DNA of 64,000 bases from Bilabrum cf. latius (taxonomy: Eukaryota). The position numbers and the translations under genes were made by a program. The stretch lies in contig OZ237746.1 in NCBI GenBank assembly GCA_965178125.1, positions 558,001-622,000 of the forward strand, written 5' to 3'. The first letter of the stretch is position 1, and the number at the start of each line of letters is the position of its first letter. Of the stretch, positions 198 to 63,742 are shown piece by piece. The notes beneath the pieces were generated by a model. That model had not been told where the DNA came from and searched no databases. It was given only the letters and a program-made list of their open reading frames with translations.

Positions 198-3100
198 ATG
201 TCCGGTCAAGTCGATGATTCCAAAGCCATTGCAGTCGAGGAAGGAAAATTCTCAGGAGGGAATCCAATGAGAGACCCTGAAATGGTGGAGAAGTCCCATG
301 ATGTTACCAGCAAGAGCACAACATGCTGCACATTCAAGTACGTCCTACTGGCAAGTGTCGCCGTCCTCATCGTCGGAGGCGCCGTTGCAGCGGCCGCAAT
401 TCATTTTTCGAAAGATAGTTCGTCTGATTCGGGCTCTATTTCGACAGTTGAAAGCGTATTCGGTCCTGGGACAGTTGGCGAAGAAGCCGCCGATTGCGCT
501 GATGAATGGCTTGAAAACCAGCGTGTATCGCCCGCACAGTATTATACCCGCGTACAAGTTGGATCTTCAGACTCATTTCCTGACTGTGTCGATGTGGATG
601 CAATGAACGAAGCAGCTGCAAGCGTTTTTGGCGTCAACGCATCGGCGATTGTCCTGACTGCAGATGCCTCATCTCGCCGTTTGTCGCGCGCAGCGGTACG
701 GCGAATGCAGGCAGGTAATTTAGTTCTAGTACAGCTTATATTCTCGTACTCCGAGGACGAGTCAGCGACAGTTGCTACACAGGTCCAGGCCAGCGCAGAC
801 TAGCTTGAGCGGGCTCTGCAGTCCGCTGTCCTGAATGCTACGGGCCAAGCAGCAGCCGTCACGATTCGCGTCATGACAGAAGATATCAGCAATGGCTTCA
901 TTCTGATGGATACCCTTCCGAGCACGAGCCCAGCTGTGAGCACAAGTTCTGCGGTCCTGGTCAGATGGCCGCAATCTCATGTATCATTGAGCCTCAGGCT
1001 ACTAGCAGTACTGCGCGTTCTATCGTACCAAGGATTGGAAATAACTGATATTGTTTTTCGATATTTTACGCAGGCATCAACCAATGATCCCGGGAATCAA
1101 CCCTCCATTTCATTGGTTAGTAACTCGCAGGAGATGACATGCGTCAAGGTCCAAAGTCAACCACCCAGAGATGCTGAGCACCGCGCTGCTCGGTCTTCAT
1201 GTTTGTCTTTTTTGCTAATGTTCCCACCGAATACTCCGCAGACGCCGACCCCGTCAACATCGCAACAGTCCGTGAGATGATTCGCGGCCACAGCACATAT
1301 CGACAGCACACACCGTGCAGAAAAAATGAAGCGACCTAAACACGCGACAAGCCACTGCATTTTTTCTTGTTGACAATTGCAGGCGCCTGCATCGACCGCC
1401 CCGAGCGACAGTCCGGCCCCTAGCAGCAGCAGCAGCCCGAGTGTAAGCCCATCGCCGAGCATAACAAGCAGCCCGAGTGTCAGCCCCACCCCGAGCATAA
1501 CAAGTAGCCAGAGCGTAAGCCCCACCCCGAGCACCACGGCAAGTGCTACCAGCAGTCCCAGCAACTCACCATCACCAAGCACAACCGCTACCGCGAGTCC
1601 CAGCCCCAGCCCCACTCCAACTCCTAGCCCGGTCCCCCTTGTGCGGCTCTTTGGCGACTCCGTGCCTGCGGCCGACCAGTACACGGTCACACCCACTGCT
1701 GCGACCCAGGCCAAGCAGCTCTCCGACAACTTCTACATGCGAGCACTCGGGGCGGGCAGCTCTGTCCTGGTGTACGCCTGCGATGATGCCACTCCTCCGC
1801 AGTGCAACGACACGGGTGTAGAGAACGGCTCGCACTTCACCGAGCTCGGCGGCAAGGTGTACATTGCAGGCAGGCTCAACAGCGTGACTGGGCTCGTCTC
1901 GTGCACCAGCGTGGGCACGTGCAGCGTGGTGAGTGTTGCGGGCTCGGTGTCGTCTGTCACCCACCTGACAGCGTACAACGGCCGGATCTGGTTCATGGGA
2001 ATCAGCACCACGTACGGGCGAGACTTGTTCAGCTGCGACACGCAGGACAGCTGCACGGCCCACGATCTGAACCCGTCGGGGAACGCCCGCCCGGAGAAGC
2101 TGGCCGTGGCGAACGGCAAGCTGTACATGCAGGCCCAGAGCGACGGCACCCACACGGACCTGTGGGTGTGCGGCACCGACAATCAGTGCACCGACCTGGA
2201 TCTGCGGTCCGGGTCGGAGCACGTGTACCCTAGCGACATCATCGAGTTCGGCGGCCAGGCGTGGCTCGCTGGCCAGATCGACGGGAGTGGCACCAAGCTG
2301 TTGCGGTGTGACTCGAGCGACACCTGCACTGCGGTGTCGGATGTATCAACCACGAGTACGCTCACATCCGCAGCCAAGGTGATCTTCGGGGGCAGGCTGT
2401 ACCTGTCCGGTGACGGTGACGAGCCGTGGGCCTGCGAGACGGATGGGTCCTGCAGCGAGGTGATGGACATCAACACGGGAGGCAGCTCCAGCCCCAGGTA
2501 CTTCACGGTGTTCCACAACAAGATCTGGTTTGCGGCTACGGATGGCACCACCAGGACGCTGTGGTCGTGCGACGCAGACGACTCGTGCTCCGCGCACTCG
2601 AGTGTGATCGACCCGGAGAAGCTGGTGGTGTTCGACAACAAGCTGTACATGGCCAGCGACGACGGGACGAGCGGGAAGGAGCCGTGGAGCTGCGACGCGT
2701 CGGAGACGTGCTCGATGCTGCAGGACATCAACCCTGGCTCTGGGGACTCTGACCCGTATCTGTTTGCCGGTGCCGATAACTTGTACGTGGTCGCGGACGA
2801 CAACACTCGGGGGTGGGACGTGTACACGTACGGGAGGCTGCAGCCCGCGGCGTCCTTCAGCCCGTCGCCCACCCCGTCCGCATCGCCCAGCACCAGCCCA
2901 TCACCGAGCGTGTCTGCAACGCCAACCCCTAGTCCGGTCCCCCTTGTACGGCTCTTTGGCGACTCCGTGCCTGCGGCCGACCAGTACACGGTCACACCCA
3001 CTGCTGCGACCCAGGCCAAGCAGCTCTCCGACAACTTCTACATGCGAGCACTCGGGGCGGGCAGCTCTGTCCTGGTGTACGCCTGCGATGATGCCACTCC

Positions 3101-5516
3101 TCCGCAGTGCAACGACACGGGTGTAGAGAACGGCTCGCACTTCACCGAGCTCGGCGGCAAGGTGTACATTGCAGGCAGGCTCAACAGCGTGACTGGGCTC
3201 GTCTCGTGCACCAGCGTGGGCACGTGCAGCGTGGTGAGTGTTGCGGGCTCGGTGTCGTCTGTCACCCACCTGACAGCGTACAACGGCCGGATCTGGTTCA
3301 TGGGAATCAGCACCACGTACGGGCGAGACTTGTTCAGCTGCGACACGCAGGACAGCTGCACGGCCCACGATCTGAACCCGTCGGGGAACGCCCGCCCGGA
3401 GAAGCTGGCCGTGGCGAACGGCAAGCTGTACATGCAGGCCCAGAGCGACGGCACCCACACGGACCTGTGGGTGTGCGGCACCGACAATCAGTGCACCGAC
3501 CTGGATCTGCGGTCCGGGTCGGAGCACGTGTACCCTAGCGACATCATCGAGTTCGGCGGCCAGGCGTGGCTCGCTGGCCAGATCGACGGGAGTGGCACCA
3601 AGCTGTTGCGGTGTGACTCGAGCGACACCTGCACTGCGGTGTCGGATGTGTCAACCACGAGTACGCTCACATCCGCAGCCAAGGTGATCTTCGGGGGCAG
3701 GCTGTACCTGTCCGGTGACGGTGACGAGCCGTGGGCCTGCGAGACGGATGGGTCCTGCAGCGAGGTGATGGACATCAACACGGGAGGCAGCTCCAGCCCC
3801 AGGTACTTCACGGTGTTCCACAACAAGATCTGGTTTGCGGCTACGGATGGCACCACCAGGACGCTGTGGTCGTGCGACGCAGACGACTCGTGCTCCGCGC
3901 ACTCGAGTGTGATCGACCCGGAGAAGCTGGTGGTGTTCGACAACAAGCTGTACATGGCCAGCGACGACGGGACGAGCGGGAAGGAGCCGTGGAGCTGCGA
4001 CGCGTCGGAGACGTGCTCGATGCTGCAGGACATCAACCCTGGCTCTGGGGACTCTGACCCGTATCTGTTTGCCGGTGCCGATAACTTGTACGTGGTCGCG
4101 GACGACAACACTCGGGGGTGGGACGTGTACACGTACGGGAGGCTGCAGCCCGCGGCGTCCTTCAGCCCGTCGCCCACCCCGTCCGCATCGCCCAGCACCA
4201 GCCCATCGCCGAGCGTGTCTGCAACGCCAACCCCTAGTCCGGTCCCCCTTGTACGGCTCTTTGGCGACTCCGTGCCTGCGGCCGACCAGTACACGGTCAC
4301 ACCCACTGCTGCGACCCAGGCCAAGCAGCTCTCCGACAACTTCTACATGCGAGCACTCGGGGCGGGCAGCTCTGTCCTGGTGTACGCCTGCGATGACGCC
4401 ACTCCCCCGCAGTGCAACGACACGGGTGTAGAGAACGGCTCGCACTTCACCGAGCTCGGCGGCAAGGTGTACATTGCAGGCAGGCTCAACAGCGTGACTG
4501 GGCTCGTCTCGTGCACCAGCGTGGGCACGTGCAGCGTGGTGAGTGTTGCGGGCTCGGTGTCGTCTGTCACCCACCTGACAGCGTACAACGGCCGGATCTG
4601 GTTCATGGGAATCAGCACCACGTACGGGCGAGACTTGTTCAGCTGCGACACGCAGGACAGCTGCACGGCCCACGATCTGAACCCGTCGGGGAACGCCCGC
4701 CCGGAGAAGCTGGCCGTGGCGAACGGCAAGCTGTACATGCAGGCCCAGAGCGACGGCACCCACACGGACCTGTGGGTGTGCGGCACCGACAATCAGTGCA
4801 CCGACCTGGATCTGCGGTCCGGGTCGGAGCACGTGTACCCTAGCGACATCATCGAGTTCGGCGGCCAGGCGTGGCTCGCTGGCCAGATCGACGGGAGTGG
4901 CACCAAGCTGTTGCGGTGTGACTCGAGCGACACCTGCACTGCGGTGTCGGATGTGTCAACCACGAGTACGCTCACATCCGCAGCCAAGGTGATCTTCGGG
5001 GGCAGGCTGTACCTGTCCGGTGACGGTGACGAGCCGTGGGCCTGCGAGACGGATGGGTCCTGCAGCGAGGTGATGGACATCAACACGGGAGGCAGCTCCA
5101 GCCCCAGGTACTTCACGGTGTTCCACAACAAGATCTGGTTTGCGGCTACGGATGGCACCACCAGGACGCTGTGGTCGTGCGACGCAGACGACTCGTGCTC
5201 CGCGCACTCGAGTGTGATCGACCCGGAGAAGCTGGTGGTGTTCGACAACAAGCTGTACATGGCCAGCGACGACGGGACGAACGGGAAGGAGCCGTGGAGC
5301 TGCGACGCGTCGGAGACGTGCTCGATGCTGCAGGACATCAACCCTGGCTCTGGGGACTCTGACCCGTATCTGTTTGCCGGTGCCGATAACTTGTACGTGG
5401 TCGCGGACGACAACACTCGGGGGTGGGACGTGTACACATACGGGAGGCTGCAGCCCGCGGCGTCCTTCAGCCCGTCGCCCACCCCGTCCGCATCGCCTGC
5501 CTCTCCCCCACTATAA
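198..5516 (+). CDS. Type II membrane-anchored surface protein with Ser/Pro/Thr stalk and three tandem Cys-rich ELWxxDGT-like beta-propeller modules
   Basis: N-terminal TM (YVLLASVAVLIVGGAVAAAAIHF). In-frame TAG 801-803 reads on as SAD-Q-LERALQ. Inferred exons 198-959, 1074-1115, 1242-1271, 1383-5516; the first two introns are in-frame and uncertain. Repeats such as GKEPWSCDASETCSMLQDINPGSGDSDP resemble ELWxxDGT repeats. Ends TAA. Confidence 0.75.
1623..5500 (+). repeat. Three near-identical 1305-bp coding tandem repeats (435 aa each)
   Basis: Units start at about 1623, 2928 and 4233 and differ by only a handful of substitutions. The ORF track repeats at a 1305-bp period. Confidence 0.95.
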
Positions 5517-8518: not shown

Positions 8519-11500
8519 TCAAGCATGGAGGTGGGCTCCTGCGGCCCGCTCGGCTGCACGCCACGCAACAGCTGCATCCGCCACCCCAGCACCACGAAGA
8601 GCGCGTCTGGCCCACCTCGAAGCCTTGCGAGCCACAGCAGCCCACTCAGCCGACAGATCTGCACACTGCTTCCGGAGAATCGCTACCGCCAGAGCCGTCA
8701 CCCACACCGCCTGCGCGCTGTCCCCGGCGGCAGCAAGCTCGCCCGGCTGCTTGCCCTCCCAGCCATCGCCTGCCATAGCACGGAACGCAGCGGTCACCCG
8801 GAAGTCCCCAGCGGCCGACTGCCCCTGTACCAGGTCCTGCATACGCTCGCGGGCGGTTCCTGGCACAGAATATCCGGGTGCCTCCCCGCCCATCATGTCC
8901 TCCATCTCGCTCTCGTCCTCGGAGGAGCCCAGCGACCCCACGACCAAATCGTCAAGCTCGCCGCGCCCTGGCCCTGTAGGTGTGTCCTCTGCTTTGAAAG
9001 ACGCAGTCTGGGCTCGTTTGGGTCGCGAGGGCACCGCCGAGAACAGCTCCGTGGCCACGGACTGTTCCTGCTCAGCGGCAGGTGCGGGGGCAGGTGCCCC
9101 CCCAAAGCCCATGGCCGACATGAGACCGGAGAGCATTCCGCCACTGGGGGCAGCACCTGCACTGGCCGGTGCTGCCTGCGCATTGAAGCTCTCTGCTTGA
9201 TCCCTCAGCTCCAATGACCGTGCCTGCATGGCACCCAGCCCCTCCCCGCGAACAGTTGTTGCCTCTAGGTCGTCGCTCCCGAATGATGCGCGGCGGGACC
9301 GCCTGTCATAGACCGTGCGGTCGAGGCCTGCCGGTCGCACATCCATTCCTCCTCCAGATTGAGTGGACGGTGCGTCGCGCAGACCACGCCTCTTCGCCCG
9401 CGCGCCTCCTCGCTGTCCCCTGGCGCCCTCTGGCACTCGGCCCCGGGCCCGCGCCATCGCCCGCGCGTGCCCCGCGTGCATCCCGACATCGAAGTCGCCA
9501 TCACTATCCTCACTAACTTCGTTCGCGGCTGCATCCATGGCCATATCCAGGGCCACAGGGGCGCCACCTACGGCTGCATACACACCAAACGGGCCACCTC
9601 TACCGACCCGGCCCGCCGCAGCAGGTAGCGCCCTGCCTTCCTCCCTCTGTGGCCGCAGCAGCTCCGGCGGGATGGGTTGGTTGTCAGCCCGCAGCATCTG
9701 CACGTACAAGGACTCCTCCGGCTCCTCGTGGGGCGCATCCTCGAGGGCCGGCTTCAGGGCGGCCTGGCCCACGAAGCGAGTCGCCATGTCGTCCACGGCT
9801 GCGTCACCGCCGGCCGCAGCGGACGCGTAGTCGACAGCCACGAACGATGCCAGCTTCGAAGCCACCCCGAACTGCAGGCACAGATCCAGCGCCTTTTTCT
9901 TGTCGCCTTTGTCGGTCGAACTCTCGAGCTGCTTGGCGATCCGGCTGGCGCACAGGCAGTGCACGGCCCGCCCTGTTGACATGGCCGCCGCGCCGTGGAT
10001 CACGCCGGTCTCCATAGCGCGGACGCCGGGATTGTCCTACGCATCTTGCGGTGCACCTGCGCCCGTGGAGGCGGACACTGACCCTGCTCCGCCCGTGGAC
10101 CCGGTTCCAGACCCTGCCGCATCCGCCTCGGTGGTGGCTGCTGCATCACCCGCTGGTTGCTCGCCCTCCTGCTTCACGTCATCCTCGTCGCTGTCGCTGT
10201 CCCCCCCGCGATCGCTGAGCTCCCTCAAAGGCACGGCCAGCTTCCAAGACAAGGAACCGTCCGGGCCGATGGCCTGCAGGGTCACGCTCGCCACGGCAGG
10301 CAGCGCCCCTTCCTTGCCCGACTGCCCCAACTCCCACACGCCGGGCTTGAGGATGGCAGTCATCAGGAGTCGATCGCCGGCGAACACGGGCACGTGCTTG
10401 GAGGGCCACGAGTGCTGCACGAAGGGCCGAAGCTCGCCCCAGTCAACCTTGACGTTGCTGAGCGCGGGCTGGAGGGCTCGGTTCATCTGCCTGGCCACTG
10501 GCTCCTCGATCCGGTCCCCGCTGGCCACCATCTCGGCCTTGCCGCCGCCCGCCTCCGCCACGCCTTTGACCAGGGCGGAGGAGGCCTCGGAGCCGAAACC
10601 CAGGGAGAACACCCGCACGCCCTGCTTGCTCCTGGTGCCGCGCACGAAGTCCACCACGGCCCTGGTGTTCTCCACATCCCCGTCGGTCATGAGCACGAGC
10701 ACGCGAGGCCACTCCGGGTCTGGATCTTCCTCCAGTACTGGGTCCCTGAAGGGGAGAGGCTCCACGAGGCTCTCGGTGAGGGGGGCCAGGATCTCCGTCC
10801 CGCCCAGGTTGGCCTCCATGCTGCGCACGTGGGCCAGGGCAGTCTGCAGGGTCTCGTCGGAGTACTGCCTGGCGCCGCCGTCGAACAGCGGCTGCCGGTG
10901 GGTCCCAAAGCTCACGATCTGGAACTTGCAGGTGCTCGGCAGCGACCTCAGGGCCATGGCCAGCGCGTCCTTCACCTGCCTCATGCGGCTCCCTGCCATG
11001 CTGCCCGACCGGTCCACCAGGAACGTGTACTCCACCCGTGGATCGTTGTCGAACGTGTCCGCATCCAGGTCGGGCTGAAGGCTCACCATCACGGCGTGCT
11101 GGGAGGGACCAGAACCAGATCCAGAACCAGACCCGCCCGCGCTGCCAGCCGCCGCGCCACTCACCCCCTGCTCGCTGGCCTCCCCCTGCTCCCTGGCATC
11201 CTGCCCGCTCAGCTGCTCCACCCACGCCCGAGGCGCGTGCGGGTTCTCCGTCAGGATATCGATCACGAAGTCTCCGCCGATCAGCCCCGCCCCTCGAGGG
11301 TCCCTCCACACCACCTGGGCGTTCTTGCGAGACATGGTGCCTGCCCCGCTCTCAGCATCCGCAGGCTGCCCCTCGGCGCCCGAGGTCCTGCCGCCCTCGG
11401 CGTCCGGGTGCAGCAGCACAGTAACGAAGTCGTCGGCGGGATGCGAGGGCACGTGCACCGACCTGATCCGACCCGCCATGCCGATGTCCACCGACACGCT

Positions 11501-12303
11501 CACGGGATATCCCGCCCCCTCTGCGTCATCCACGTCGGGGCCGGCACCAGCCCCTGTGGTGGCATCGCCTCCTGCCCCCGTGCCAGTGGTCGCGGCGGGT
11601 TTAGTCGCGGGCTCTTGCCCAGAGCCGAGCTCGTACCTTGGTGCCACGGTGGTTGGGATCACGAGCCTGGTGCTCTCCCCGCTGCACTGCAGGGGACTCA
11701 CCACGGTGATCTCGACCGTGGCGCTCTGGCCGGGGCCCAGGTTGCCCAGAGTGGTGGTGAACACGTCGCGGGAGGCTGCGCTCTCTTCGACTAGGGCTGC
11801 TTTGCCTCCTGCAGCGATGGCGTCTTCGTATGCGTCCTTGGCGGCTTCCTTTTCCTGGACTTCTCCGCGAACCATCCGGTCTCCAAGCTTGGCCTGCGAG
11901 ATGCACCGAACGATGGACTCTATAATAAAATAAGCAAAGTCTCATAGAACTTTTTAGTCTGGTACATCGAACGAGTGCAATCTGGCGACCGTCCAATGCG
12001 TACATGCTAGGATCCAAGCAGGAAGCATCTCGTTCTCGGTGCGGTAGCCAAGCAATTGACCAGCACTCCGAACGCAATTTCTATCGTCGCCATCATGGTG
12101 CTCACCGCAATTCCTGTTACAACACTAGATGCATCTACTGGAAACGTGTAAATGACCTCAAGAGGTTTGCTTTCCTTGTTCTCAAACGTCTGCCGAACGG
12201 TAAGCTCGCAAAGGGCCTCTCCAACCTTGCCAGTGACATCTACGGAGGTCAGTGGGAGAGGAGGGCCTCCTCCTGTAGGCAATAAACCGATTTGCTTCGC
12301 CAT
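8519..12303 (-). CDS. VIT + von Willebrand factor A domain protein (VWA5A-like)
   Basis: VIT motifs (QTFEN...YTFP, GEVQEKEAAKDAYEDAI) and MIDAS FLVDRSGSM, LMTDG. Intron 11894-12105. TAG 10037-10039 joins the 612-aa and 498-aa ORFs. Ends TGA. Confidence 0.9.
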
Positions 12304-12443
12304 GATGTTCTTTCGGTTTTTATGAGGACAGTTAATAATGAATTCTCAGGCACAATTCCGATCCACGCAATATGCACTGCAATGTAGCGCCCGTCCGGAT
12401 CCGTCGCGTTTGACGAGGGTCCAAATATCGCACTGAAAAACAG

Positions 12444-13754
12444 ATGCAGATCGCTCAAACAGGACTTTTATGTGCATCCATTCGGTGCATCATTGCATCA
12501 TCCGGCCAGAATGCGTCTGATGTCGTACAGAAGCCGACTGAGAGCGAAACGAAGGTGTTTCGCCCGCGGACGTTCGGATCCGGCTACTAGGTCGAGATAT
12601 CCACGGATGAGTTTGAGCTGCTGAACCACACCTTATCTGCAGATGCTACGGCAGGGGTACTCTCGCATTTCTGGATGACGGGTTCAAACAGCGAGCTGGT
12701 GGATTCGGCAATCGTATCACTCTACGTCGACGGGGAAGCAGCTCCCAGCATCCGCACCACGCTCTCAATGGCGTGCGGATAGGGATACCCCGATGTGTAG
12801 GCATCAACATTTCCGCCCCAGGGCCTCTTTGCTGCTGGAAGTCGCTTTGGCAAGTCAGCAGCGATTGGCGGCTGGCATTTCGAGCATCCCGTGCCGTTCT
12901 ACCGTTCGTTGCGAGTGACGGTACGCGTGCAGCAAGGTTCAATGCACGCTTGGGCTCTGGTGCGTGGTCGTGAATCAACTGGTAATTACTGTCCGGTGCA
13001 GCTTCCATCCGGGGCCCAGCTGCCGCTCGGCACCAAGATGCAGCTGCAGCAGCTGCACAACCAGACCTTCCAGCCCCTCTCGTTCGTCCCAATAGCGAAG
13101 GTTCCCCAGGGACTGGCCGGGCTTCTGTACATGACCGTGATTGCCACGTCTGCATCCCACGCGGGCAACTACATCGAGGGCTGCTTCCACCTGTTTCCAT
13201 CGCATGACGCGGCCTGGCCGGGGATCGTGGTGGGCACCGGCGTGGAGGACTTCTACTCGAGCTCGTGAGTCGGTCGATCTGATTGATAGATTGATAGATT
13301 GATTGATTGGTGTCTTTGGAATAGGGAGGACGTGTACTGGCTTGATAGCTTGCAGCGATTGCTCCGGCTTTTGCCGCCGCAGCCTCTCGCGTTGCCTGCC
13401 TAATCGATTCGATGTTCCGAATGCGAATGCTACTCGCGCAACTTACCGCCTCCACCCTTTCGCAGGTATAGATTCTGTGCTCACGGCGACTCGGATCCCC
13501 CTTGCACGTTCGCGCACCCCGACTCTGGCATGCTCGCCTTTAGCGCCGACGCGGCGAACGATCGGGAGAGGATCAGCGCTTACCGCGTGCTGGTGGACGA
13601 GGAGGTGGGGTTCATGGACGGGGGGTCGCTGCAGTGGAGGGTGGGGGACGTGAAGGACAAGTGCCTGGCAAACGGTACTTCGCCGGCCATTGGACACCCC
13701 ACGGCAACTAATGTGACTTCGGACGCGTGGGTGCTGGTGTGGCCAAACACCTGA
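12444..13754 (+). CDS. Secreted DUF2961 (GH172-like) family protein
   Basis: Signal-like N-terminus; motifs GVLSHFWMT, LYVDGEAAPSI, PVPFYRSLRVT, GTGVEDFYSSSY. In-frame TAGs at 12588, 12780, 12798. Intron 13265-13465. Ends TGA. Confidence 0.75.
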
Positions 13755-14037: not shown

Positions 14038-16153
14038 TCAGCCCGACTCGCTCACGCCGTCCCACAGCTCGCCCTCCTGCGCACGGGCCGCTTCGAGCGC
14101 CTCCTTGTAGATGGTGGCCACGGGCCCGAACTCCTCCTTGGGCCTCCTCCAGAAATCCACCACCCCCTTGTGGTTCTCGCCGCCGGGGCGCCCGCTCTTG
14201 GTGCTGATGTAGGCGCAGTTGCACGGCTTGGACAGGTCAGTGCATGGTGGGCTGTAGTCGCAGGACCCGGCAGACTGAGCCCCCACGTTGGCCTTGATAT
14301 CGTTGAACTGCCACACCGTCAGGGCGCTCACGTTGGGGTTCTTGGCCGCGAACTGGGCCTCTGTGGGCACGATGAGCTTCTGGTAGGCCTGGGACCAGCG
14401 GGGGAAGGGCTTGGTCGTGTCGTTGTGCCACTCGTAGATGCCGGCGGCGCCCGTCTCCGAGATCTGGAAGCTCTTGTCGGGGTAGTTGCTGTGCGCCCAG
14501 CTGACGTGCTGCTCCCACTTCGTAACCGTGTTGTTCGGGCAATCGTTCAGCTCGCCATACCAGCACGGGTAGTCGCTGCGAAGAAAGACCCAAAAGAGCA
14601 GGGCGGTACAGAACATAAGGAGCAACAAGCACTTGCATCGATGGACTAGTAGGCCTTCATGGAGGCGCGACGGGTAGAGGACCGGGGGCCAGTCATCGGC
14701 CCTCTTGCTTGCCTGTCTCTCACTTGAACGAGATGTGGTCCACGATGGCGAGGCACACGTCGCCCTCCTTCTTGTCGCTGGCCCACGTCACCAGGCGCCA
14801 GGGGGGCCTCTCCTGCCCCTTCACAAGGGTGGATCGCTGCCTCACCGCGTTGGCGGACTGGTTGTACCCCGGGCATGCGTCCTTGTCGTTGCTTGGGCCC
14901 TCGTTGTTGAAGCCGTGCACGATGATGGAGGGGTGGTTGATCGAAGTCTCCACCATCTCTGCCATTTGCTGCAGCTGGTACTTCATGAAATAAGGGTCTT
15001 GCAGGTCCTTGAGCTGCACTCCGGGACCCAGTGCTTCCTCCCAAATGACGATGCCCTCCTCGTCCAGCATGTCCAGCCAGCGCTGGTCCTGGGGGTAATG
15101 CGCCCCGCGGATGTAGTTGAGGTTGAGCTGCTTGATGAGCGCCATGTCAGACTTGAGCTGGTCCATGGTGAGTGCAGACCCCGTGTCGGGCCACATGGTG
15201 TGACGATTGAAGCCCAGCAGCTTGGTGACCTCCCCGTTGATGGCCAGCCGAGACACACCGTCTTGCTGCTGCTCCACGGAAACCAGCCGATGCCCCGTGC
15301 GGACCGTAATCGAGTCGGCCAGATTCGCCACGGTAGCCTTAATCTCGTACAGGTTGGGCTTCCCGATGGCCCACAGCTTGATGTCGGCGGGCAGCTTGAA
15401 CGACGGCACAACGGCCGACCCGTCCTCGCCCAACGTCACGGACAGGGACTGCGACGCGCCGCCGTTGATGGAGAGGCTCACGTCCATCTTGGTGCCTTGC
15501 TTGGCGCCCTTCCCGCCGAACACGAATCGAAGGTCCGACGTGTACGGCTGCGACTTGACCTGCACGGGCGCGACCTCGAGGCGCTGGAGGTACGCGCCGG
15601 CGTTGCTCGCTTCCGCGGACAGCTCGCGCACGACGACGTTGCGCGTGATACCACCGTAATTGTAGAAATCGCCACCGGTATGCACTGGGGCTCGTGTCGA
15701 GTTAAACTCGTTGTTGGCGAGAACCAATATTTCGCGAGTGGTCTTCGAGCTCGAGACGGGAATGTCCAGCCAGAACGGAGCGTAGCCGCCGGCGCGATGA
15801 TCCCCGATGTCTGAGCCATCCACGAATACCCTGCAGTAGAATGAGCATGCAGCGAAGAGGACGCGGGCGGATCGCCCTGCGGTCACGTCCACGGTCGTCC
15901 GGTAGAACCCAGTGCCTTTCGCGCCAACCACACCGGGCACCGCCACGTCAAAAGCAGACGGAACAGTAGTTGTTTTGGGCGTGGAAACATCCTAGTAGGG
16001 AATGGTCACGGGGTCGATCGTGTGCTCTTCTGCGAAGCCAAAACTCCACTACCCATCGAGCACAGAAATTTTGGAGTCTAAATAGTGGGGGTAGAACGGC
16101 ATCTGTGCATGGGCCCACGCAGCAATTGTGGCAATTGCCAAAATAGATCTCAT
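14038..16153 (-). CDS. Secreted glycoside hydrolase family 2 (beta-glucuronidase/galactosidase-like)
   Basis: Signal peptide MRSILAIATIAAWAHA; LDG-[TAG]-WSF; GFNRH, IRGAHYP, NHPSII..FNNE, SFNDYPCWY, ISETGA. TAGs at 16049 and 15992. Intron 14576-14723. Ends TGA. Confidence 0.9.
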
Positions 16154-16441
16154 GGCAGCAGCAAGTCTGCTACAGCTGTCTTGAATATACGCGGATCTTT
16201 GGTCGATAGCTCAATGGAGGTGTGACGCGGAGCGAAGGGCTGCCGGCTCATATCACACGTGGTGCAACTAGTGACTGTTTCGGAAAGCTAGACAAATTGA
16301 GCCGGGGGTTCCGACACAAGCCAACAGCATGGTAGTATTTGAAACGGTGCCAACAGGTCCCACTCTGTGGGAGCACCCTATCGCAAGCAAAACCACGCCC
16401 AGGCAGGCCGCAGGCGAAACTATGCCCACCCCTCCAACAGG

Positions 16442-35419: not shown

Positions 35420-35456
<37 letters not shown>

Positions 35457-49144: not shown

Positions 49145-49339
49145 TCCGTGATCACACTGCGGTGGTTGCCTGTTGAAGACCTCGCGAGTTGAACCCTCAC
49201 TCTTGGATTCTCATGTTATAACATCCACGGATACGGTGTGTGAAGCCGGCAATGACAGTCATCGAAACCTTCAATGCACCTGTGAGCGTTGGTAGACACT
49301 GCCACTCAATGACTCGGTAAGAGTTAGCCCTGACGCGTT

Positions 49340-50508
49340 TCAAGTGCTCGACACTGCTCGCCTCCGTTTGTTTACACCCACGGCGCTTTCAGAGCTGCGA
49401 GATCGTTTGGAGCCTATCTCACCGCCTCCGTCTGGCGCCAATCCAGCAGAACGCTCCGCTTTTGCGTCAGATTGCAACCCACCCGTGGATGCTTGTCCTG
49501 TCGATACCTCACCACGTGCACTGCCTCCACTCCCGCTGCTGCTATTGCCAAGCGAAGAGCCTGCGTCGCCCTGGCTGGTGCCGCTGTCGTCTTCACTCCC
49601 ACTGTTGCGAGCGGTCGCACGAAGACCCCACTTGTCGCCATTGCGAGGTCTTGTGGCCCCGTCTTGCGCTGGCTCAGCTCCCTTGTGTTCGGAGCTGTTC
49701 GTAGGAGTACCATCAGACCCGGAGGAATCATCGCTATCCTGTCCCATATTGCCGGAGTCCTGGCTGCCTCCTTCCGGCGAATCACCAGACGGAGAATCGC
49801 CCGAAGCGCCACCGCTGTCACCTGGAGCATCAAGGCTAGATCGCCCCCCCACGTCTGACGACGATGCCGCTGGCGGAGGTGCCTAAACGGACTATTTGCC
49901 GAGGTTGGCCGCTGCACCTCCATCACACCCTGTTTCGCATTCTTGGTCTGAGCCACGATGGGCGGCATCGGTTCCCGTGGCGGCACCATGCCGAGTGGTG
50001 TCCGAGCTACGTAGTGCGTGCTGATACCTTCTGGCTTGTTGCACCGCGTGTCGGTCCTCCTGGGCCTTTGAAACAACCTCGGGCTGCTCGTGCAGCAGAA
50101 TGCGGCGGTGTCTCCTCTCTCTCCGTTGCGCAGCTTCACGCCGATGCACGTCGGCCATACTGGTGTACACCGGGGCATCCACACCGGCTGCATGGGCCTG
50201 GATGTCGAACCCGTGAGATCGAAGCAGCGGCGCATTCAAGCTGAATCGACCTGTTGGCGGCCACGCTCCCGCCACTGCGCGGACATTCCGTGGCGACCTT
50301 CCGTCATGCTGCGTCTCCTGCAGCAGCCACTAGCCGTACTGGTCTCGAAGGGCTTGCACCTTGCTGTCCACACGGCGCCCTTCAGCAGAAGCAGACGACT
50401 AACCAGCAGTATTGGGTGTGGGGGCTACCATCGAGTGCTTTGGGGTCGCCGCCATGGCAGCCCGTGCGGCCTTCACCAGCACTGCATAGGTTGAGGTGGC
50501 AGTGCTCG

Positions 50509-50542
<34 letters not shown>

Positions 50543-52620
50543 ATTTGCAGCCTTTGATTGAGCATCTTGACGGTTTGCGCCGCTCTCGTGGAGAGGGACC
50601 AGCCCTGGCACTCTCGCACTGGAGGGCTCCTGCACAAACCGCACGCGCCTCGACTGCGAGTCCGTCTCGCCCGCATGGTGCTCCTCGTTTTCCGCATGGG
50701 AGTGTTGCGCCTGCCCATCGGCGTGCCCCATAGCACGCGCCGCGTCCAGCTGCCGTGCTGCCTCGGGGGGCATCTCACCATTGCCAACCCCACCCATTTC
50801 ACCATTCAGGTCCCCAACTTGATTCTCAGGCGCGCCAGCCCTTGTGCGTCCCTCTGTGCTTGGTGCAGCCTCCATCGCTTGGACATGCTCCGCTGCCTCC
50901 CTGGCCTTCTAGATGGCCTCCTGCAGCGACAGCCCATCCCTGAGCACACCCTCCTCGAAGGCCCGGAGCTCCTCGCGGCTCATGGACAGGTGGCTGGGCA
51001 CCGACCTGAGGCTCGGCATGGTGTCCAGCAGCAGCTCTCTCGCCTGCAGGGCCACGTGGCGCAGCTTATCCACCTGTCGCAGGCCCATACACTGCAGCTT
51101 CCTCAGCCGCTGTTCCCTGGAAGACAGATCGGATTGGCTGAGCGTCCCACCCGCGGTCTCGCCGCTGTCATCACCCCCTGCTCCCGATCGCTTGACCCGA
51201 TCGATCTGCTGCTGTACCCCGTGTACTGCTCTCAGCAGGCCATCCGCCTCTGCACTGGCCAGCTGAGCCGCCCGTATGGCGTGCTGCCTCAGCTAGGCGG
51301 AAGACACACCGGGCAGCGACTGGGACTGCACGGCTTCATTCCACGCGAGCTTGGCACCATCGCTCCCGCTCCCGCTCCCGCTCCCGCTCCCGGCACCACT
51401 GCTGCTGCTATGGGTAGACAGCGGAGGGGGTGCTAGCGAGTTCGGCTGGGCGCTTGCGCTCGTACCGCATGCCAGGTGTGCTTTGGACTAGACGGGGCTT
51501 GTGCCGGCAGGCGGAGCGAACCAGAACTGGGGACTTCTCCCGCTCGAGTGGGGGTGGAGAGAGGCCGATGCGCTAGAGGCAGCAGCATGAGCTGGCACGG
51601 CTTGCGCGGGTGCCCCAGCCCCCTGCTACTGCTGCTGCTGCTGAGTGTGAGCGAGCAGTAGTTCGGTGGTTTGGGGATCAAGATTCCACACGCCGACCCC
51701 TCCAGGATGCTGGATCGGACGTTGTAGCTTCATGACAGAGCCGAATGTGAGGCGCCATCCCCCTGTACTGCTTGTTGGCTATTGATCCCACGAGGAGATC
51801 TGCTTGCCGTGTGTCTCCTGGCTCGGCGTTGCATGCTGAACTTGTGCAAAACCAAGGATCTGGCCACACATACTCTTCAGTCTGCTAATATCAGATATCC
51901 TCCATGTTTCAAGCGCATATTGCACCGCGCCTGGAGACATTCGCTCGAATCTGTCCGCGAACACAGCCACCCAACTTCCAATGAGACTCTCGATCGACTT
52001 GAAGTTTACAATCCCCGCATTCTGCGATATGGTGCGTACAAACATGCAAATACTAATGCTGCACTTTCGATCACAGGGACAGAAAGGAGGTGCACGAAAA
52101 GACCAAAGGATGGGGCGTTGTCACACCGACGCTACCATCACGGGCTGCTCAAAACTTGGTCAAATCAAACAACGAATCACAAGAATACGTCGAAACATGC
52201 AACGCAGTGGCATTCGGGGGCGATTGCCCCGGAGAAATTCTCTTGGTGGCCCACAGCGGTGCCCAAAAATCGGAGACATGCAACACATCCACTCCACTAC
52301 CTCACTGTGTACCCTTCAATGATGCCACTGGCATACGGCTGCTGCAAAGTGATAGCATATAATTGCACATCTCGCACTGCTAGCATGCTGGACTCGGCTG
52401 GACGCCTGCTTCCAGCCCATTGACCGATCGAACCGTCCATCAACGAATGTAGACTGCCCTGACAGGTATAAATGCCAACGCTCAAGAGGTGCTTGCAGCG
52501 GCAGAAGTTCTTGTATTTTTTACAGAACTTATTTTCTGTATTATACCTTGGCTGTACGGCGCAATCTGGTAAGAGGTAGGGCGTATTGGATTCCGGCGCG
52601 TGCAGGTGAAGTGATGACTG
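49340..52620 (-). CDS. ASCH-like domain protein with long low-complexity C-terminus (5' end unresolved)
   Basis: AITLQQPYASGIIEG, GSWVAVFA, GQILGFAQV, KLQRPIQHPGGVGVWNL resemble ASCH motifs. Intron 52022-52305. One frame runs from 52021 to TGA 49340 through 9 TAGs. Confidence 0.6.
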
Positions 52621-52854
52621 CACTTGCCAGAGTGCCAGTGCCAGTGGCAGGGATCCGATCCTGCCATCCGGCGCTCATCAATGGATTGCTACTGCTGGTA
52701 CCTTTAGAAGTAGTTACGAGCAGACAGGCCACTGCATCAATTCTGAATGGGCCACCCTTCACATGTACAAGTGGCAGGGACCGCAAATGCTGATCCATGC
52801 TAACGCCGTACTCGCCGCATCTGGCCCGGCCGTATCTCCCCGCACAGACCATGC

Positions 52855-55751
52855 TCACCACAGCTCCTGCACGAGCCTCCTAGTTTTCTCCAGCCGGTCC
52901 ACGAAGCTCGCTGCCTAAGAGTTGTCCATTCTGCCGTGCCGCTGGGCGATCTGCGCCAGTGCCGAGACCACGGCGTGCCCCATCCGCCGGGCCCCGCACA
53001 CGTAGAACGAGCCGCCCTTCCCGTGGATCATGTCCCAAACCCTCGCCTGCCACGCGTCTTCCAGCAGCCTGTCCTGCACGTACACCTTGCCCCCGCCTCG
53101 CTGTTCCCTGGAGAAGGCCAGCACCAGCTCGCTCAGCGTCCCGTCCTCTTTCCACCCCTCGATCTCCTCCCTGTAGATGTAGTCCTCGTCCCGCCGCCTG
53201 CACCCGAAGAACAACACGGTCTCGCCCACCGCATCTGCCCCCAGCCGCTCCCTCTGGATGGCTCGCTCCTGCAGAAAGGCGCGCATGGGGGCGATCCCCG
53301 TCCCGGGGCCTACAAGCACAACCGGCAGTCGTGGGTCGGGCGGCAGCTCGAAATGGGACGTCGTGACAAACACTCGCATGGTGGGCCAGGGGCCCGTCTG
53401 GTCGACAGCTCCAGTCCCGGCGGCGGCCGCAGCCCCGGATGCCGCTGGTCCCACCACCACCCCGTCCTCTGTTCTGTGGGGCCGCACCCCCTGCATGTAG
53501 TGGGTGCACACACCCATGTGTTCCCTGGTCGGGTCCTGGGCCGCCTTGGGCTCTCTGACGATGGACACTGCCAGGTGGATCCGCCTGGGGTGCGCCACAG
53601 AGGAGGACGCGATGGTGTACTGGCGGGGCTTGAGCCTGGGCGCCAGCTCGAGAAATGCGCCCAGAGGGGGCTTCACCGACGAGAACTCCTGCAGCACCTC
53701 CACCAGGGAGCGGCGGGGCTGCACGGCCCACTCTTGCCACTCCCCTCTGCCCTCTGGCTTGGAGAAGAAGGCCAGCCTCGCCCTGTCCTCCGGCTTGGTG
53801 GCCCAGCGAGCCAGCTGGCCCACGAACTCTCTCGAGGGAGTGGCCTGCAGATCCACGTACCACGAGAGGGCAGCACGCACCGTGGTGGGTGTGGGGAACA
53901 GAGGCTCAGGCTGGTCCTCCTCGTCAGCCCCCGCATCGCCTTGTTCCCTGGGCTCCAGCACGAACCAGGCATCTGGATCCTCGAACTCGCCCCCCAGCCA
54001 GGCGCAAAGCGGCTCCACCACGGAGTCCGGGTTCTGGGGCAGCACGCTCAAGTTGTCCGCCGTCTCATAGGCCAGCCCGCTGCCTCTGAGGTCCAGCTCG
54101 ACGTGGAACGTGGAGGCGTCCGGCTGCGGCTTTTGTCGGAGCTCCCTGTTCGCGATGACCCGCACGGGCACCGCGGTGAAATACGGCTCCGATTCCATCG
54201 AGGCCGCTTTGCCCTGGTCCGCCAGCCCCCGTGGGACAGCCTTAGACACCCCGTATGACTTGCCCGCGTGCTTGAGCTCACCCCCCGAGGCAGCCGTGGC
54301 GTCGCCAGCGGCCGCCCTCGCCCAGGATGGCCCCGCCGTGGCCTGCGCCTCCTCCTCCTTCACCGGTGAAAACCCCTGCAGCAGGCTGGGGTCCCGCCGA
54401 GCAGCCGCCGCGAAAGCCTCGCCCTTCCTTCGCAGCGCCTCGGGCTCTGGCACCATCCGCAGCTGCATGGACAGGTCCGCTGCATCGGGGAGGCCGTCTC
54501 CCGCCGATCCACCGGTGGACCCGTCACCCGATCCGGAGGATTCCTCCGCTAGACCCGCGGCCTTCCTCAGCGCTGGCCACAGCTGCTGTCTCCACTGCGC
54601 GAAGTCCTCGTTGATGTTGTCGTCGTCATCGCCTTCGCCATACGGCACCACGCGCTCGGCCCCGCCCTGCTCGAGTCCCTGATTCGTCTGCTTCCCGATA
54701 GCATTGTAGTGGTCGTACGTCTTATTTCCCAGGCCAAACACGCCGAAACGGAGGCCTCGAAGGGCACCAGAGCCGGCAGCGGCACCCCCCCCGCCCCCGC
54801 CCCCCTGCTCTTCGAGCCACTCCATGAACCCCTCCGCGTTGGCCGTGGGATCTCCCTCTCCGTACGTGGCCATCAAGAACAGCGACAGCGGTGGCCCCGC
54901 GCCCTCGCTTGCCCCTGCCCCCGCCCCCGCCCCGTCCTCCCCCCGGGCAAAGTTGGCAGGGTTCCATCCCTCAAGGTCGATCGACTTGCCGCGGAACCCG
55001 TGCCGCCGGGCCTCCTTGACCAGCTTAGAGGCGAATCGCTGGGCAGTTCCGGTTTGGGAGCCCCAGAACACCCGCAGGAGCGGCTTTGACCCAGAGCCGG
55101 CCGCGTCCTCCTCCTCCTCGGCGGGGTCGGCCGCGTCGTCGCCCGCCTCCTCCTCGTCCTCGCTCTCCTCGTCGTCCACCATCCTGCGGTGCATGGGAGC
55201 GACAAAGCTGGAGCATGGGGGGCGGTGGTCAAGTACAACAAGCTAGTGTCTATCGGCACGGACTAGTTTATGCGGTGTGCGTTCCCGCTGTCCCGACGGC
55301 CTGCACAACGCCGTCCAGCTCTGCCCACTCTTGCAGCCACTCGAGGTATCCAGCAGAAGACAGCTCCAAGACGAGTACAATCGCAGGGGCTTCATATAAT
55401 TATCTACATCCATGCAGCAAATCTCTTGAAATGCAACAAGTTGTGCCGCATAAAAGCAAGCTGCGGTAAGGGCACATTGCTGTCCGGAACTCAGCAAGCC
55501 AACCCGCAAGTATTTGAGGTGCGTGGAGCACCGTTGCTACATAATACACTGCCCGATACCAAGTCATTTCCGCACATCCACAAGCATTGGTTTCAGTTGG
55601 CAAAGAGACTGGTGACGTCATGGCGATGGGTCCCTCACTGCACAAGTCTAGGATCCACTGCTGGTTTCGCAGGCCAAAATATATAGGCTAGGATTCCGAT
55701 GCAACCTAATATCACTAATATCCCAAGTGGGCTTGCCAATATCCCCGACAT
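52855..55751 (-). CDS. POR: NADPH-cytochrome P450 reductase
   Basis: N-terminal TM exon 55751-55639; intron 55184-55638. GSQTGTA, ATYGEGD, FGLGNKTY, RQYTIASS, GPGTGIAP, FFGCR, AFSRE, KVYVQ, YVCG. Terminal Trp (VQELW) is reached only through TAG 52915. Confidence 0.93.
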
Positions 55752-56110: not shown

Positions 56111-57628
56111 ATGAACAGGGACTCCGGCACCCAGCTTCTGGGGCAAGCGCTTGCAGCAGCGAAATCAGGGGATGCAGCGAAAGCCCAGCGCCACCTGGCC
56201 AGGTGTAGAAGAATAGACCCGGACCACCCGAGGTTGGAACAAGTATTTCAGCAGGTAGATGCCATGCTGAATCCGTAGGCAGAGCCCGAACCGCCCGGCG
56301 GTGCTGCTGGTGCGCAGGGAGAACCACCAGGCAGCGGCCGCGCAGGAGACGGAGGGAGGGAAGGCCTGCGATAGCGAAGAGGGGCCCCGAGCCGATCTGC
56401 ATCGTAGCCAAACACACAGAGACACGCATCATCCCGGGCCAGCGAGCCCCCCCGCCGCGCGGCCAGCGGAACCTCCACCTCCGCTGCGCACGCCGCCAGC
56501 CCCTCCGCGGGGCACTCGAGCGGACGGGCCGCAGACGCGGCGCAATCCGCCGAGGTGCGGCGCGTGCTAGGCACCAAGGATCTCTACGAGGTTCTGCGCG
56601 TCTCCCGAGACGCCACCGAGGCTCAGATCAAGCGCGGGTACAAGCTGCTGGCAAGGAAGGTGCACCCCGACAGGAACCCCGACCCAAGGGCCACGGAGGC
56701 CTTCCAGAAGATGCAGCGGGCGCAGGACGTGCTGCTGGACGGTGACAAGCGGGCCTATTACGATCAGCACGGGGAGGAGGAAGGGGTGCACCAGGCGCAG
56801 CAGCAGCAGCAGCATGCTGATAGGGTGCACCGGGCCTATCGGAGACGGCAGCGGGGCGGGGACCCCTTCGAGCAGATGTTCTTCGGGGGAGGCGGGCCCT
56901 TCGGAGGGGGTGGCGTGCAGTTTGGTTTCATGGATGATTTCGGCAACGTGCAATTTCGGGGGATGGGGGGCCGCCGTCGAGCGGAGCGTGCTGGCCCCGA
57001 GGACGAGCAGCGTGCTCGGATGGCGTCCCTGCTGCAGCTGCTGCCTGTGGTGCTGCTGCTGCTCTTCACCCTCGTGCCCATGCTCATCTCCGGCCTGAAC
57101 TCGCCCTCGTTCTCCTTGGACAGGCAGGGCCCCTTCAGCGTGTCCATGAGGACTGCTGAGGCGGCGGGAGTGACCCCTGGCCTGCCCTATTTCGTGACAC
57201 GGGACTAGTACGCGACGCTGCACACGAGCCGAAGCGAGAGGCACCGGGTGGAGAGGGACGTGGACGGGCAGCTGAGGGACCGGTTGAAGAACCAGTGCAA
57301 GCAGCAGCGCATGCGAAGGCACGCCACGCGCATGCAGGCAGAGCGAGCGTGGGACAGGCGCACCCGGGACATCCTCAAGAGGCAGGCGGAGTCGCTGACT
57401 CTGGATAGCTGCGACCTGTATGACCAGTACTTCTCGCTGCAGAGCGCGGCGGCGAGGGCGAGGCAGAGGTCCAGAAAGGGTGGGTGGAGGAAGCACGGGC
57501 AAGGGGGGGCGGCCGGGGGAGGGGCCGCCAAGGGTGGGGCGGCGGCGCAGGGCCAGGCTGGGGGTAAGGGGGCTTCCGGGCGTGCCAAGAAATCAAGTGG
57601 TAGCAAGCGAAAGAACAAGTTCGGTTGA
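56111..57628 (+). CDS. ER membrane DnaJ protein (DNAJB12/14-like)
   Basis: MNRD...KAQRHL N-terminus, J-domain with HPD, G/F region, TM (LLQLLPVVLLLLF) and a luminal domain. TAGs at 56276, 56372, 57206. Ends TGA. Confidence 0.88.
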
Positions 57629-58173: not shown

Positions 58174-59254
58174 ATGCAGAGGCATGCCCCCTTGGCTTCG
58201 CGGGGCCGCGCGCACTTCCACCCCGGCGATGATGGGATGCCTCTGTCAAGGGCCTCGCCCGCAGCGCCCCTCTCTCCCCCTCCATCACCAGGCCAGCGCC
58301 GCCCCTACCCTGGCCCTTGCCCCCTCCCTTGCCCTGCGCAACCCCGTTGTGCCCGCCCCCCGCAGAGTGCTCGTCCTTCCTGGCCGCCTCCCGTCGAGCC
58401 ACCACCTCCCGCACTGTCCCCGCCACGGCAGGGTCGATCCTCCCCGCGAGCCGCCCTTCGAGCTCTGCATCCGTGATGCCTCGCTGGCTCTGCTGCACGC
58501 GATGCTCTGCCTGACGCCGCTGCAGGAAGCGCTGCAGCTCGCGGTCCTCGGCCGCCGCCTGGTGCTCGTCGCTGCGCGCCCCCAGACGCCCCTGCTTGCG
58601 GAGCCGCTTGGCGCCGCGCTTGCCCGCCTCCAGCTCGAGGATGGCCAGCTCCTCCTGCCTGGCGGCGTCGCGGGCGTCTCGGCGCGCGTCCAGATCCTTA
58701 AGCTTGCGCTCCGCAACTTCTAGCCTTGATTGTCCGTCTCGCGCGGCCTTGCCGCCCTGCATGAGCATGCGGAGGGCTGTCGCGTGCTCCTTGGCCAGCG
58801 CCTTCTCTGCCTTGCGGTCGATGCGCTGCTGAAGCTGCTTCTTCTTCCTAGTCTGGCTGCCGGTTACGCCCATAGATCTTCGCTGCTGCATGACTTCCTT
58901 CGCGACCGCGGTTACGCGACGCTTATACTTCTTCAGGCTCTCTCCTTGGATTCGCTCCACTTTCGGCATCGCTGGACCCTTGCTACCGCTGCTTCCGCGG
59001 CCTGAATCCCCTGCACTGGAGGGCTCACGAGGCCGTTTGCGACCTACAAGTGTTCCGCTTCTAGTGAATCGCATCTCTTCCTTCGGGATAGTATGCGTTG
59101 GCAGCAGTTGCCGCTGGACTTCTCTTCGCTCGTCCTTGGCTGTAATTGGAGCATCCCGTCGCTTAGCAACCACTGGGTCCTCGGGAACAACGCCTCCAGT
59201 CTTTGAGAAAGGGTCAATTGCCTTAATCTTGCGCTTGCGGGAAAGGCGCCCCAT
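57728..59254 (-). CDS. Basic coiled-coil protein (CCDC137-like, tentative)
   Basis: Intact 508-aa ORF; RKRKIKAIDPF and IQGESLKKYKRRV motifs. Confidence 0.55.
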
Positions 59255-59410
59255 CGCTGCAGGTCTGAAGTCCGGTTCCTTCCCTTCGATTTATTGCATT
59301 CATCTTTAAAAATAGTACTGCGCGGCGCCGTACGAAATGTTCCGCTTGGGTGGCGTGCAGTTGCGTTTGTTGTTTCTTGCGCACGATTTTTACTCAAGAA
59401 CTCAGGAAAC

Positions 59411-60307
59411 ATGAGCTTCAGAGGACGCGGAGGCGGTGGATACGGTGGTGGTGGATATGGTGGAGGTGGTCGCGGTGGTGGCGGATTCCGTGGGGGAGGA
59501 AGAGGCGGAGGACGGGGTGGTTTCCGCGGCGGAGGCCGAGGCGGCAGGGGCGGCGGTCGTGGGGGTGCTAGGATGGGTGGTTACGATACAAACCCTTCCC
59601 ACGTAGTAGGTGAGGTTTATGTTGAATGCCTTCACTGTTTGATTTTGCACGATGAGCTCTTTGCGGCTGCTGTAGAGCACACGCTCACCACGCATTTAGT
59701 TTCTTGGCAATAGCATTCCCCTGGCATTTACGTCAATTAGTTTGCTGAACCTATTGCGTGTCATTATTTTTTTCTTGCAGGTCTAGGAGAATTCATGCAT
59801 GAGTGCGAGAAAGATATGGTGTGCAAGGGCACGCTCGTGGAACAGGTCCCGTACTTCAACGCTCCCGTGTTTTCGGAGACCAAGCAGCATCTAGGCAAGG
59901 TTGATGAGATTTTTGGAAACTTGAGTTAGCTTATGTTTACGGTGAAGACGGAGCCGGGCGTGAATGCATCGAGCTTCAAGGCAGGCGACAAGTTGAGCAT
60001 CGCTCCTGACAAGCTGCTGCCCCTTGCTCGGTTCCTGCCGGGGGCCAAGAGACCGCCCAGCTCGGGTGGACGTGGTGGAGCGCGCGGGGGCCGCGGTGGC
60101 GGGCGCGGCGGATTCCGTGGCGGAGGCCGGGGTGGAGGCCGCGGCGGCGGGTTCAGCAGAGGGGGGTTCGGGGGAGGCAGGGGCCGCGGCGGCGGGCGCG
60201 GTGGATTTGGCGGCCGGGGTGGGGGCCGAGGCGGAGGGTTCGGCGGGGGCCGGGGTGGAGGGTTCGGTGGAGGCCGGGGCGGAGGGGGCGGCAGGGGCCG
60301 CTGGTGA
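59411..60307 (+). CDS. GAR1: H/ACA snoRNP subunit Gar1
   Basis: RGG tails flanking the core LGEFMHECE...VPYFNAPVF...GKVDEIFG...[10 protein letters not shown]. Intron 59610-59780. TAG 59927 lies inside the core domain. Confidence 0.95.
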
Positions 60308-63700: not shown

Positions 63701-63742
63701 CAATGCGCACCCTGCCAGGATTGCAGCCAGCAGGACAATCAT
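60704..63742 (-). CDS. Large secreted beta-rich protein of unknown function (about 1010 aa)
   Basis: Signal peptide MIVLLAAILAGCALA. Three ORF-track fragments are joined in frame by TAG 62426 and TAG 61682. Ends TGA. Confidence 0.7.

Follow-up and report, generated by a model that had tools for sequence, protein, structure and literature searches.

UAG very likely specifies glutamine in a GC-rich 64-kb nuclear sequence carrying stramenopile-like genes

Nuclear genetic codes in which UAG alone has been given to glutamine are described in PMC11687900 from Iotanema spirale (a fornicate), Protocruzia tuzeti and two phyllopharyngean ciliate lineages. Here we analyse the in-frame TAG codons of a 64-kb stretch of contig OZ237746.1 (positions 558,001 to 622,000 of the forward strand; the whole of this stretch is called the window, and coordinates are counted from its first letter). 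UAG is very probably a glutamine sense codon in this nuclear genome, with UGA (mainly) and UAA as terminators, an arrangement equivalent to NCBI table 15. This reading, which an earlier note on the same DNA had proposed, is supported by four independent lines of sequence comparison, namely the exchange of TAG with CAG and CAA between paralogues, the presence of TAGs within CAG runs, the residues in homologue columns, and Gln at the corresponding sites (7 of 7) of relatives sharing 80–98% identity.

As in Iotanema, Protocruzia and the phyllopharyngeans, UAG would stand for Gln beside a UAA stop, with a predicted tRNA-Gln(CUA) (PMC11687900, PMC5304391). The window differs from Iotanema and the ciliates in being a multi-gene 64 kb chromosome piece of 60% GC, with spliceosomal introns and stramenopile-like genes, and its main stop is UGA, whereas UAA is dominant in two taxa of Panek et al. 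(PMC5304391). Codes which read both UAA and UAG (UAR) as Gln (NCBI table 6) occur in many ciliates, Hexamita, ulvophyte green algae, Streblomastix and Amoeboaphelidium, and these too turn a stop into Gln by a one-step change from CAG or CAA (PMC11687900). In the window, by contrast, TAT (tyrosine aminotransferase) stops at a TAA where its homologues stop, and TAA was nowhere met in frame. In the uncultured rhizarian exLh and in a ciliate UAG means Leu, and in Scotinosphaera it means Ser; here again UAG is uncoupled from UAA (PMC11687900), but in the window the residue is Gln. Recoding of TAG to Gln (code 15) is also described in phages (PMC9523058). The codon has the same meaning in phage and giant-virus code 15, whereas the DNA of the window is cellular and nuclear and carries both introns and housekeeping genes.

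In-frame TAG codons in otherwise intact genes

Eukaryotic genes are tightly packed in the window. When frames bounded by TAA or TGA were translated, with TAG read through, Pfam matches were obtained in 16 genes: VIT/VWA, DUF2961, a GH2 glycosidase, a cytochrome-b5 desaturase, two MFS transporters, an SCP2-domain gene, a piggyBac-like transposase, Rpt5, Cupin_8, TAT, a ferric reductase, a Kelch-repeat gene, POR, DnaJ/DUF1977 and GAR1. Spliceosomal introns are present in the window genes, and two of them (Rpt5, TAT) are proven by spliced contigs. The features to which we refer below, including two unnamed open reading frames (ORFs), are as follows.

8519..11941, minus strand: VIT/VWA gene (Pfam), one TAG, codon start 10039
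12414..13268, plus strand: DUF2961 gene fragment (Pfam, 1.6e-07), TAG at 12588, 12780 and 12798
14038..16210, minus strand: GH2 glycosidase in two exons (Pfam GH2 domains), TAG codon starts 16051 and 15994
23410..25110, plus strand: MFS transporter copy a, MFS_a (Pfam MFS_1), TAG at 23431, 23698 and 23770
28904..30595, plus strand: piggyBac-like transposase ORF (Pfam DDE_Tnp_1_7, 3.1e-10), six TAGs, TAA end after a Cys-rich tail
31082..32821, minus strand: MFS transporter copy b, MFS_b (Pfam MFS_1), TAG codon starts 32800, 32461, 32320, 32302 and 31117
32967..33302, plus strand: Rpt5 (26S proteasome ATPase) exon 1, TAG at 33021 and 33168, located by tblastn of the full-length homologue P0004
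33303..33484 (cut ambiguous by 2 nt), plus strand: Rpt5 intron, GT..AG, 184 nt, contig joint 33300>33485
33485..34542, plus strand: Rpt5 exon 2 (Pfam AAA, 2.9e-40), TAG at 33793, stop TGA 34540-34542
34836..36740, minus strand: unnamed ORF, four TAGs (36632, 36350, 35819, 35717)
38726..40225, plus strand: TAT (Pfam, 5.6e-70), TAG at 39812 and 39926, stop TAA 40223-40225
Within TAT, plus strand: exon 1 to 38905, intron 38906-39103, then exon 2 (spliced contigs)
41810..44413, minus strand: ferric reductase/NOX-like gene (Pfam), TAG codon 42437-42439, stop TGA
45350..49144, plus strand: Kelch-repeat gene (Pfam Kelch families, repeats only), 11 TAGs (45857, 45920, 45938, five within 47267-47293 as (TAG GGC)x5, 47801, 48818, 48884)
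49340..52120, minus strand: unnamed low-complexity ORF, nine TAGs, one (51628) within a CAG run
52855..55563, minus strand: POR (NADPH-cytochrome P450 reductase; Pfam FAD_binding_1, 3.3e-51), coding TAG 52915-52917 close to the C-terminal Trp, stop TGA
56111..57628, plus strand: DnaJ/DUF1977 gene (Pfam), TAG at 56276, 56372, 56405 and 57206
59207..60307, plus strand: GAR1 (Pfam Gar1, 7e-24), coding TAG at 59927
59609-59781, plus strand: apparent GAR1 intron with GT..AG ends, placed from sequence and homology

There are 71 in-frame TAGs in 21 of the 24 maximal, TAA/TGA-bounded ORFs. Of these, some 8 to 10 are intronic or precede the probable start codon (SCP2 aa3, Cupin8 aa2, POR aa9 and aa107, MFS_b aa23, PGBD aa5, GAR1 59711 and 59738), and the two TAGs of Rpt5 exon 1 stand outside the count. 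With these subtractions and additions the earlier estimate of 55–60 TAGs in 18 of 22 genes was about right. The GAR1 intron is itself open in frame if TAG is read through, and its two TAGs inflate a naive coding count.

Within the Pfam-matched spans (5570 codons in 16 genes) there are 19 TAGs, distributed over 11 of the genes, and no TAA or TGA, the two zeros being partly built in since the ORFs were cut at these codons. The off-frames of the same spans contain 53 TAGs, 187 TGAs and 29 TAAs, TGA being 3.5 times commoner than TAG, and the chance that 19 of 19 random stops would be TAG at these frequencies is about 4e-14. The matched domains of GH2, Rpt5, TAT and GAR1 are truncated, in each case by a GT..AG intron and not by a read-through stop; in GH2, for instance, exon 2 resumes the TIM barrel in a different frame. 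The Gln codons of the matched spans would comprise 176 CAG, 30 CAA and 19 TAG, so that TAG accounts for 19 of 225, or roughly 8%.

The genes are otherwise intact, as had been claimed: in the 16 matched genes TAG is the sole interrupting codon and there are no frameshifts. The individual sites quoted at that time are exact (Rpt5 KQI[TAG]ELVEA at 33793, TAT RLS[TAG]LIIG at 39812, and POR MDNS[TAG]AASF at 52915-52917 on the minus strand), and the Rpt5 Walker A motif, the GGIGITP of the ferric reductase and the terminal Trp of POR are all preceded, in frame, by TAGs.

Identity of the residue at UAG

In a codon alignment of MFS_a with MFS_b each coding TAG stands opposite another TAG (two cases), a CAG (one) or a CAA (two). 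Three TAGs are embedded in runs of CAG, at 45920 and 45938 in the Kelch gene and at 51628 in ORF 49340..52120. The sequence which follows the TAGs has no shared context, and this argues against readthrough driven by a motif.

The Kelch-repeat gene also carries a (TAG GGC)x5 microsatellite (47267-47296, plus strand), which is read as (Gln-Gly)x5.

Close relatives in the protein databases give the same residue. Gln is found at the Rpt5 site in P0002 (98% identical), at both TAT sites in P0123 (80%), and at 4 of 4 sites in P0243, a relative of MFS_b (81%); Cafeteria P0124 and P0125 likewise possess Gln at both TAT sites. The database ORFs of two nearer relatives, P0126 (TAT, 98%) and P0244 (MFS, 99%), terminate exactly at a TAG, which is what a gene caller using the standard code would produce. 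Taken together, P0002 on the one hand and P0126 and P0244 on the other suggest a TAG/CAR difference between close strains. A metagenome scan for the contig of P0002 returned best loci which were 68–69% identical, and that contig was not among the 80 loci listed.

For comparison with more distant homologues TAG was masked as X. In alignments to PDB entries the Rpt5 site (33793) has Q in 3 of 3, the first TAT site has Q in 3 of 4 chains and the second in 1 of 4, and the POR site is aligned with Q in the rat reductase. Among 120 database homologues in each case, the Rpt5 column contains Q 73, N 26 and E 14, while the TAT columns contain Q 100 and T 13 (site 1) and Q 47 and T 40 (site 2); Gln is thus the commonest residue at all three positions. 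Other genes were less helpful. The GH2 sites fall in unaligned N-terminal parts of solved structures, making the PDB uninformative, the DnaJ/DUF1977 sites lie outside the coverage of solved structures, and no solved relative of DUF2961 was found. The ferric reductase aligns with PDB homologues up to the point where the NOX dehydrogenase domain ends. A word-based homologue search with the full MFS_b gave two weak matches only, its low-complexity loop having probably swamped the search.

Residues were then scored by a pseudocount log-likelihood over eight columns, that is, the three well-aligned Rpt5 and TAT columns together with five from MFS. Q is the best residue and the next is 7.5 nats worse, with Leu and Ser 13 to 14 nats below Q. 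Taken by themselves the three well-aligned columns put Q 5.6 nats ahead; the five from MFS, on their own, neither separate the residues nor favour Q.

Transcripts, stop codons and rival explanations

One 20 kb stretch of the window, 33000-52999, was compared with contigs from four public runs (X2, X5, X6 and X8) belonging to four studies, none of which is recorded as RNA; parts without cover in X5, X6 or X8 were left out of the interpretation. All contig pieces listed from the four runs show 0 differences from the window, at covered TAGs and elsewhere. In X6 and X8 there are contigs which lack 33301-33484 and 38906-39103, with GT..AG at the borders; X2 and X5 have none of this kind, and X6 and X8 thus contain spliced transcripts. 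The spliced contigs carry the TAGs at 33021, 33168 and 33793 of Rpt5 and at 39812 and 39926 of TAT, and cover Rpt5 exon 1 (33000-33300) with 0 differences. Further X6 contigs cover the ferric reductase TAG (41776-44242, 0 differences), span TAGs of ORF 34836..36740 (35430-36679, 0 differences) and include all TAGs of the Kelch gene, those in the CAG runs among them, except (TAG GGC)x5. ORF 49340..52120 is covered by contigs of X2 and X6, again with 0 differences. At the level of contigs, conserved and intact genes that are expressed thus carry in-frame UAG in their DNA and in their spliced mRNA alike. The earlier note had asked whether transcripts might have CAG at these sites; DNA-type and spliced RNA-type contigs all have TAG and none has CAG.

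In all runs, contig ends and false joints pile up in their thousands at a GAC/GAG-type acidic simple repeat, 35420-35490, in ORF 34836..36740 (one depth bin reaches 28,875 in X2). The repeat is a trap for assembly and marks no biological junction.

The 24 ORFs end in TGA (21) or TAA (3), and none in TAG. Four ends match the ends of homologues: Rpt5, POR and the ferric reductase stop at TGA, and TAT stops at a TAA which coincides with the ends of its Cafeteria and PDB homologues. None of these four homology-defined C-termini is a TAG and none of the 24 ORFs needs TAG as a stop, in agreement with the statement made earlier that no gene here ends in TAG. UGA is kept as the main stop. The case for UAA as a stop consists of one well-defined and two weaker gene ends; TAA ends TAT and the transposase ORF, and no TAA occurs in frame in the window, in a small, 64 kb GC-rich sample whose ORFs were cut at TAA.

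Several observations weigh against reading UAG as Gln, or blunt the evidence for it. At the second TAT site three of the four PDB chains have F, F and K. Two plant reductases have K at the POR site, the GAR1 site is aligned with E, E, D and D, and that of the ferric reductase belongs to a variable loop, with S, S and W in the PDB homologues. In an alignment of 150 remote MFS representatives (181 aligned stretches) the five TAG columns are headed by R, A, K/L, Y and A, with Q at just 3–12%. The Q in relatives' database proteins is assumed to come from standard codons. The labels of runs X6 and X8 are guesswork ("RNA?", X6 being given as "probably DNA"), their RNA origin following only from the spliced contigs; contigs drop rare variants, so that a minority of edited transcripts could escape; and the five TAGs of (TAG GGC)x5 (47267-47293) have no cover among the contigs listed, those of all four runs breaking there. 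A tRNA scan of the 64-kb window gave 0 tRNA genes, so the decoding tRNA was not seen there, and the window does not contain the eRF1 gene. As to the columns, two of three genuine CAG/CAA Gln columns are equally Q-poor in the same remote MFS alignment, which makes these columns uninformative; in sequence comparison the variable-loop sites (GAR1, ferric reductase) and the remote MFS homologues say nothing either way.

Were UAA as well as UAG to mean Gln (NCBI table 6, the ciliate, ulvophyte and aphelid type), sense UAA might simply be too rare to be met in a GC-rich sample of 64 kb. In the matched spans CAG outnumbers CAA sixfold (176 vs 30), so that about three sense TAAs would be expected, and with ORFs cut at TAA they could be hidden. 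We nevertheless consider this very unlikely, given that TAT terminates at TAA exactly where its Cafeteria and PDB homologues end, that the transposase ORF does so after its Cys-rich tail, that no Pfam-matched domain breaks at a TAA (the breaks are introns), and that no in-frame UAA aligned to Gln was seen in the window. A weak hint in the same direction is that past the TAA of TAT neither TGA nor TAA is met before the RNA-type contigs listed stop at 40252 and 40271. An ambiguous UAG, sense inside genes and a context-dependent stop at some of their ends as in Condylostoma and the karyorelicts, appears highly improbable to us. One TAG of MFS_b is two codons past the TGA end of its paralogue MFS_a, where termination is possible, and four C-termini fixed by homology make a small sample; against this must be set the four homology-defined ends and 24 ORFs already mentioned, which have no use for a TAG stop, and the three TAGs of Rpt5, one of them 54 nt from the start codon.

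A different residue at UAG (e.g. Glu, Lys, Leu, Ser or Tyr), or inefficient readthrough, is to our mind extremely improbable. The E/D of GAR1, the K of plant POR and the T found in 40 of 120 homologues at TAT site 2 could be cited for it, but the runner-up in the eight-column score is well behind Q, the paralogues exchange TAG with CAG and CAA only, the CAG runs accept TAG, and the relatives have Q at every comparable site. Readthrough would have to manage without a shared context after the TAGs, and a leaky form of it is hard to reconcile with three TAGs in an essential proteasome subunit. There remain errors of assembly or base calling, C-to-T damage, RNA editing to CAG and pseudogenes, the combined likelihood of which we regard as negligible. 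Nothing was found in favour, although partial editing could escape the contigs; the letters are identical in four runs from four studies, spliced contigs included, and only TAG interrupts the 16 matched genes, with zero frameshifts. Pseudogenes, decay resembling repeat-induced point mutation, and editing were each rejected on the grounds of TAG-only interruptions, the lack of frameshifts and TAG in spliced contigs.

If UAG is a Gln codon as we propose, then by analogy with other UAG-only codes the decoder would be a tRNA-Gln with anticodon CUA, one mutation removed from tRNA-Gln(CUG), which would pair with UAG and not with UAA, and eRF1 would presumably show weakened recognition of UAG. That CUA is the only anticodon which reads UAG and not UAA is an argument made for Iotanema (Panek et al. 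2017, PMC5304391). UAG may first have fallen into disuse as a stop in a GC-rich genome and then have been captured for Gln; the strong preference for TGA stops in this GC-rich genome would fit such a sequence of disuse and capture.

Neighbouring repeats, lineage and implications

Other features of the window deserve brief mention. At 1374-5516 (plus strand) an ORF of 1380 codons is made up of three near-identical 1305-nt tandem units (98–100% identity across a 300-nt reference stretch), a period beyond the reach of Tandem Repeats Finder and detected by a separate repeat search. Its product has Ser/Pro-rich linkers and a repeated Cys-rich domain, with a weak Pfam match of strictosidine-synthase-like N-terminal type; the ORF has 39 CAG/CAA codons, zero TAG and a TAA end.

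The MFS genes lie in an inverted duplication, 23422-25106 / 31125-32809, of 1685 nt and 89% complementary overall, and their products are identical over the C-terminal ~400 codons. The arms flank 6 kb containing the SCP2-domain gene, an unnamed ORF and the piggyBac-like transposase, an arrangement which suggests that duplication or gene conversion took place recently, perhaps in connection with the transposon. Over its 563 codons the transposase ORF contains six TAGs in frame and neither TAA nor TGA, so that the element appears to be adapted to the code of its host rather than decayed.

The best named matches of Rpt5 are ochrophytes and oomycetes at 73–78% identity (Chrysoparadoxa, 78%), and that of TAT is Cafeteria at 65%, followed by oomycetes at ~55%. 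In a quick TAT tree the window protein pairs with P0123 (support 99), and the pair is grouped with Cafeteria and unnamed sequences (92), adjoining the oomycetes. The desaturase was also searched against the ESM Atlas, which returned names of families but nothing of use for taxonomy. Based upon these best matches and one single-gene tree the organism is probably a stramenopile outside the oomycetes; the earlier note had spoken of a protist, and the same evidence upholds this to the extent of placing it on the stramenopile side.

No report of a nuclear UAG=Gln code in a stramenopile or bicosoecid was found in a literature search which excluded subscription papers and supplements (the runs date from 2025 and a description may exist). 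The lineage looks new for this UAG-only Gln type of code. We would tentatively put forward the further possibility that it is the first stramenopile lineage, near bicosoecid-like heterotrophs in the single-gene tree, with a changed nuclear code, in which UAG alone has passed to Gln in a GC-rich genome whose genes end mostly in UGA. The change may be young. In the ~80% relative the database ORFs are unbroken and carry Q at 6 of 6 positions that can be compared. Since at 98% identity there is Q for the TAG of Rpt5, yet TAG is kept in TAT and MFS, the lineage could be showing codon capture in progress.

Changes in the nuclear code are rare, and those which give UAG and UAA separate meanings are rarer, with only a handful listed in PMC11687900. 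A new, independent and GC-rich case outside the ciliates and metamonads bears upon how UAG can escape eRF1 while UAA does not, and offers a test of whether disuse of a stop codon precedes its capture. In practical terms the public gene calls of near-identical relatives (P0126, P0244) are cut at TAGs, and unless table 15 is used for translating this organism its proteomes, phylogenomic matrices and metagenome bins will be wrong.

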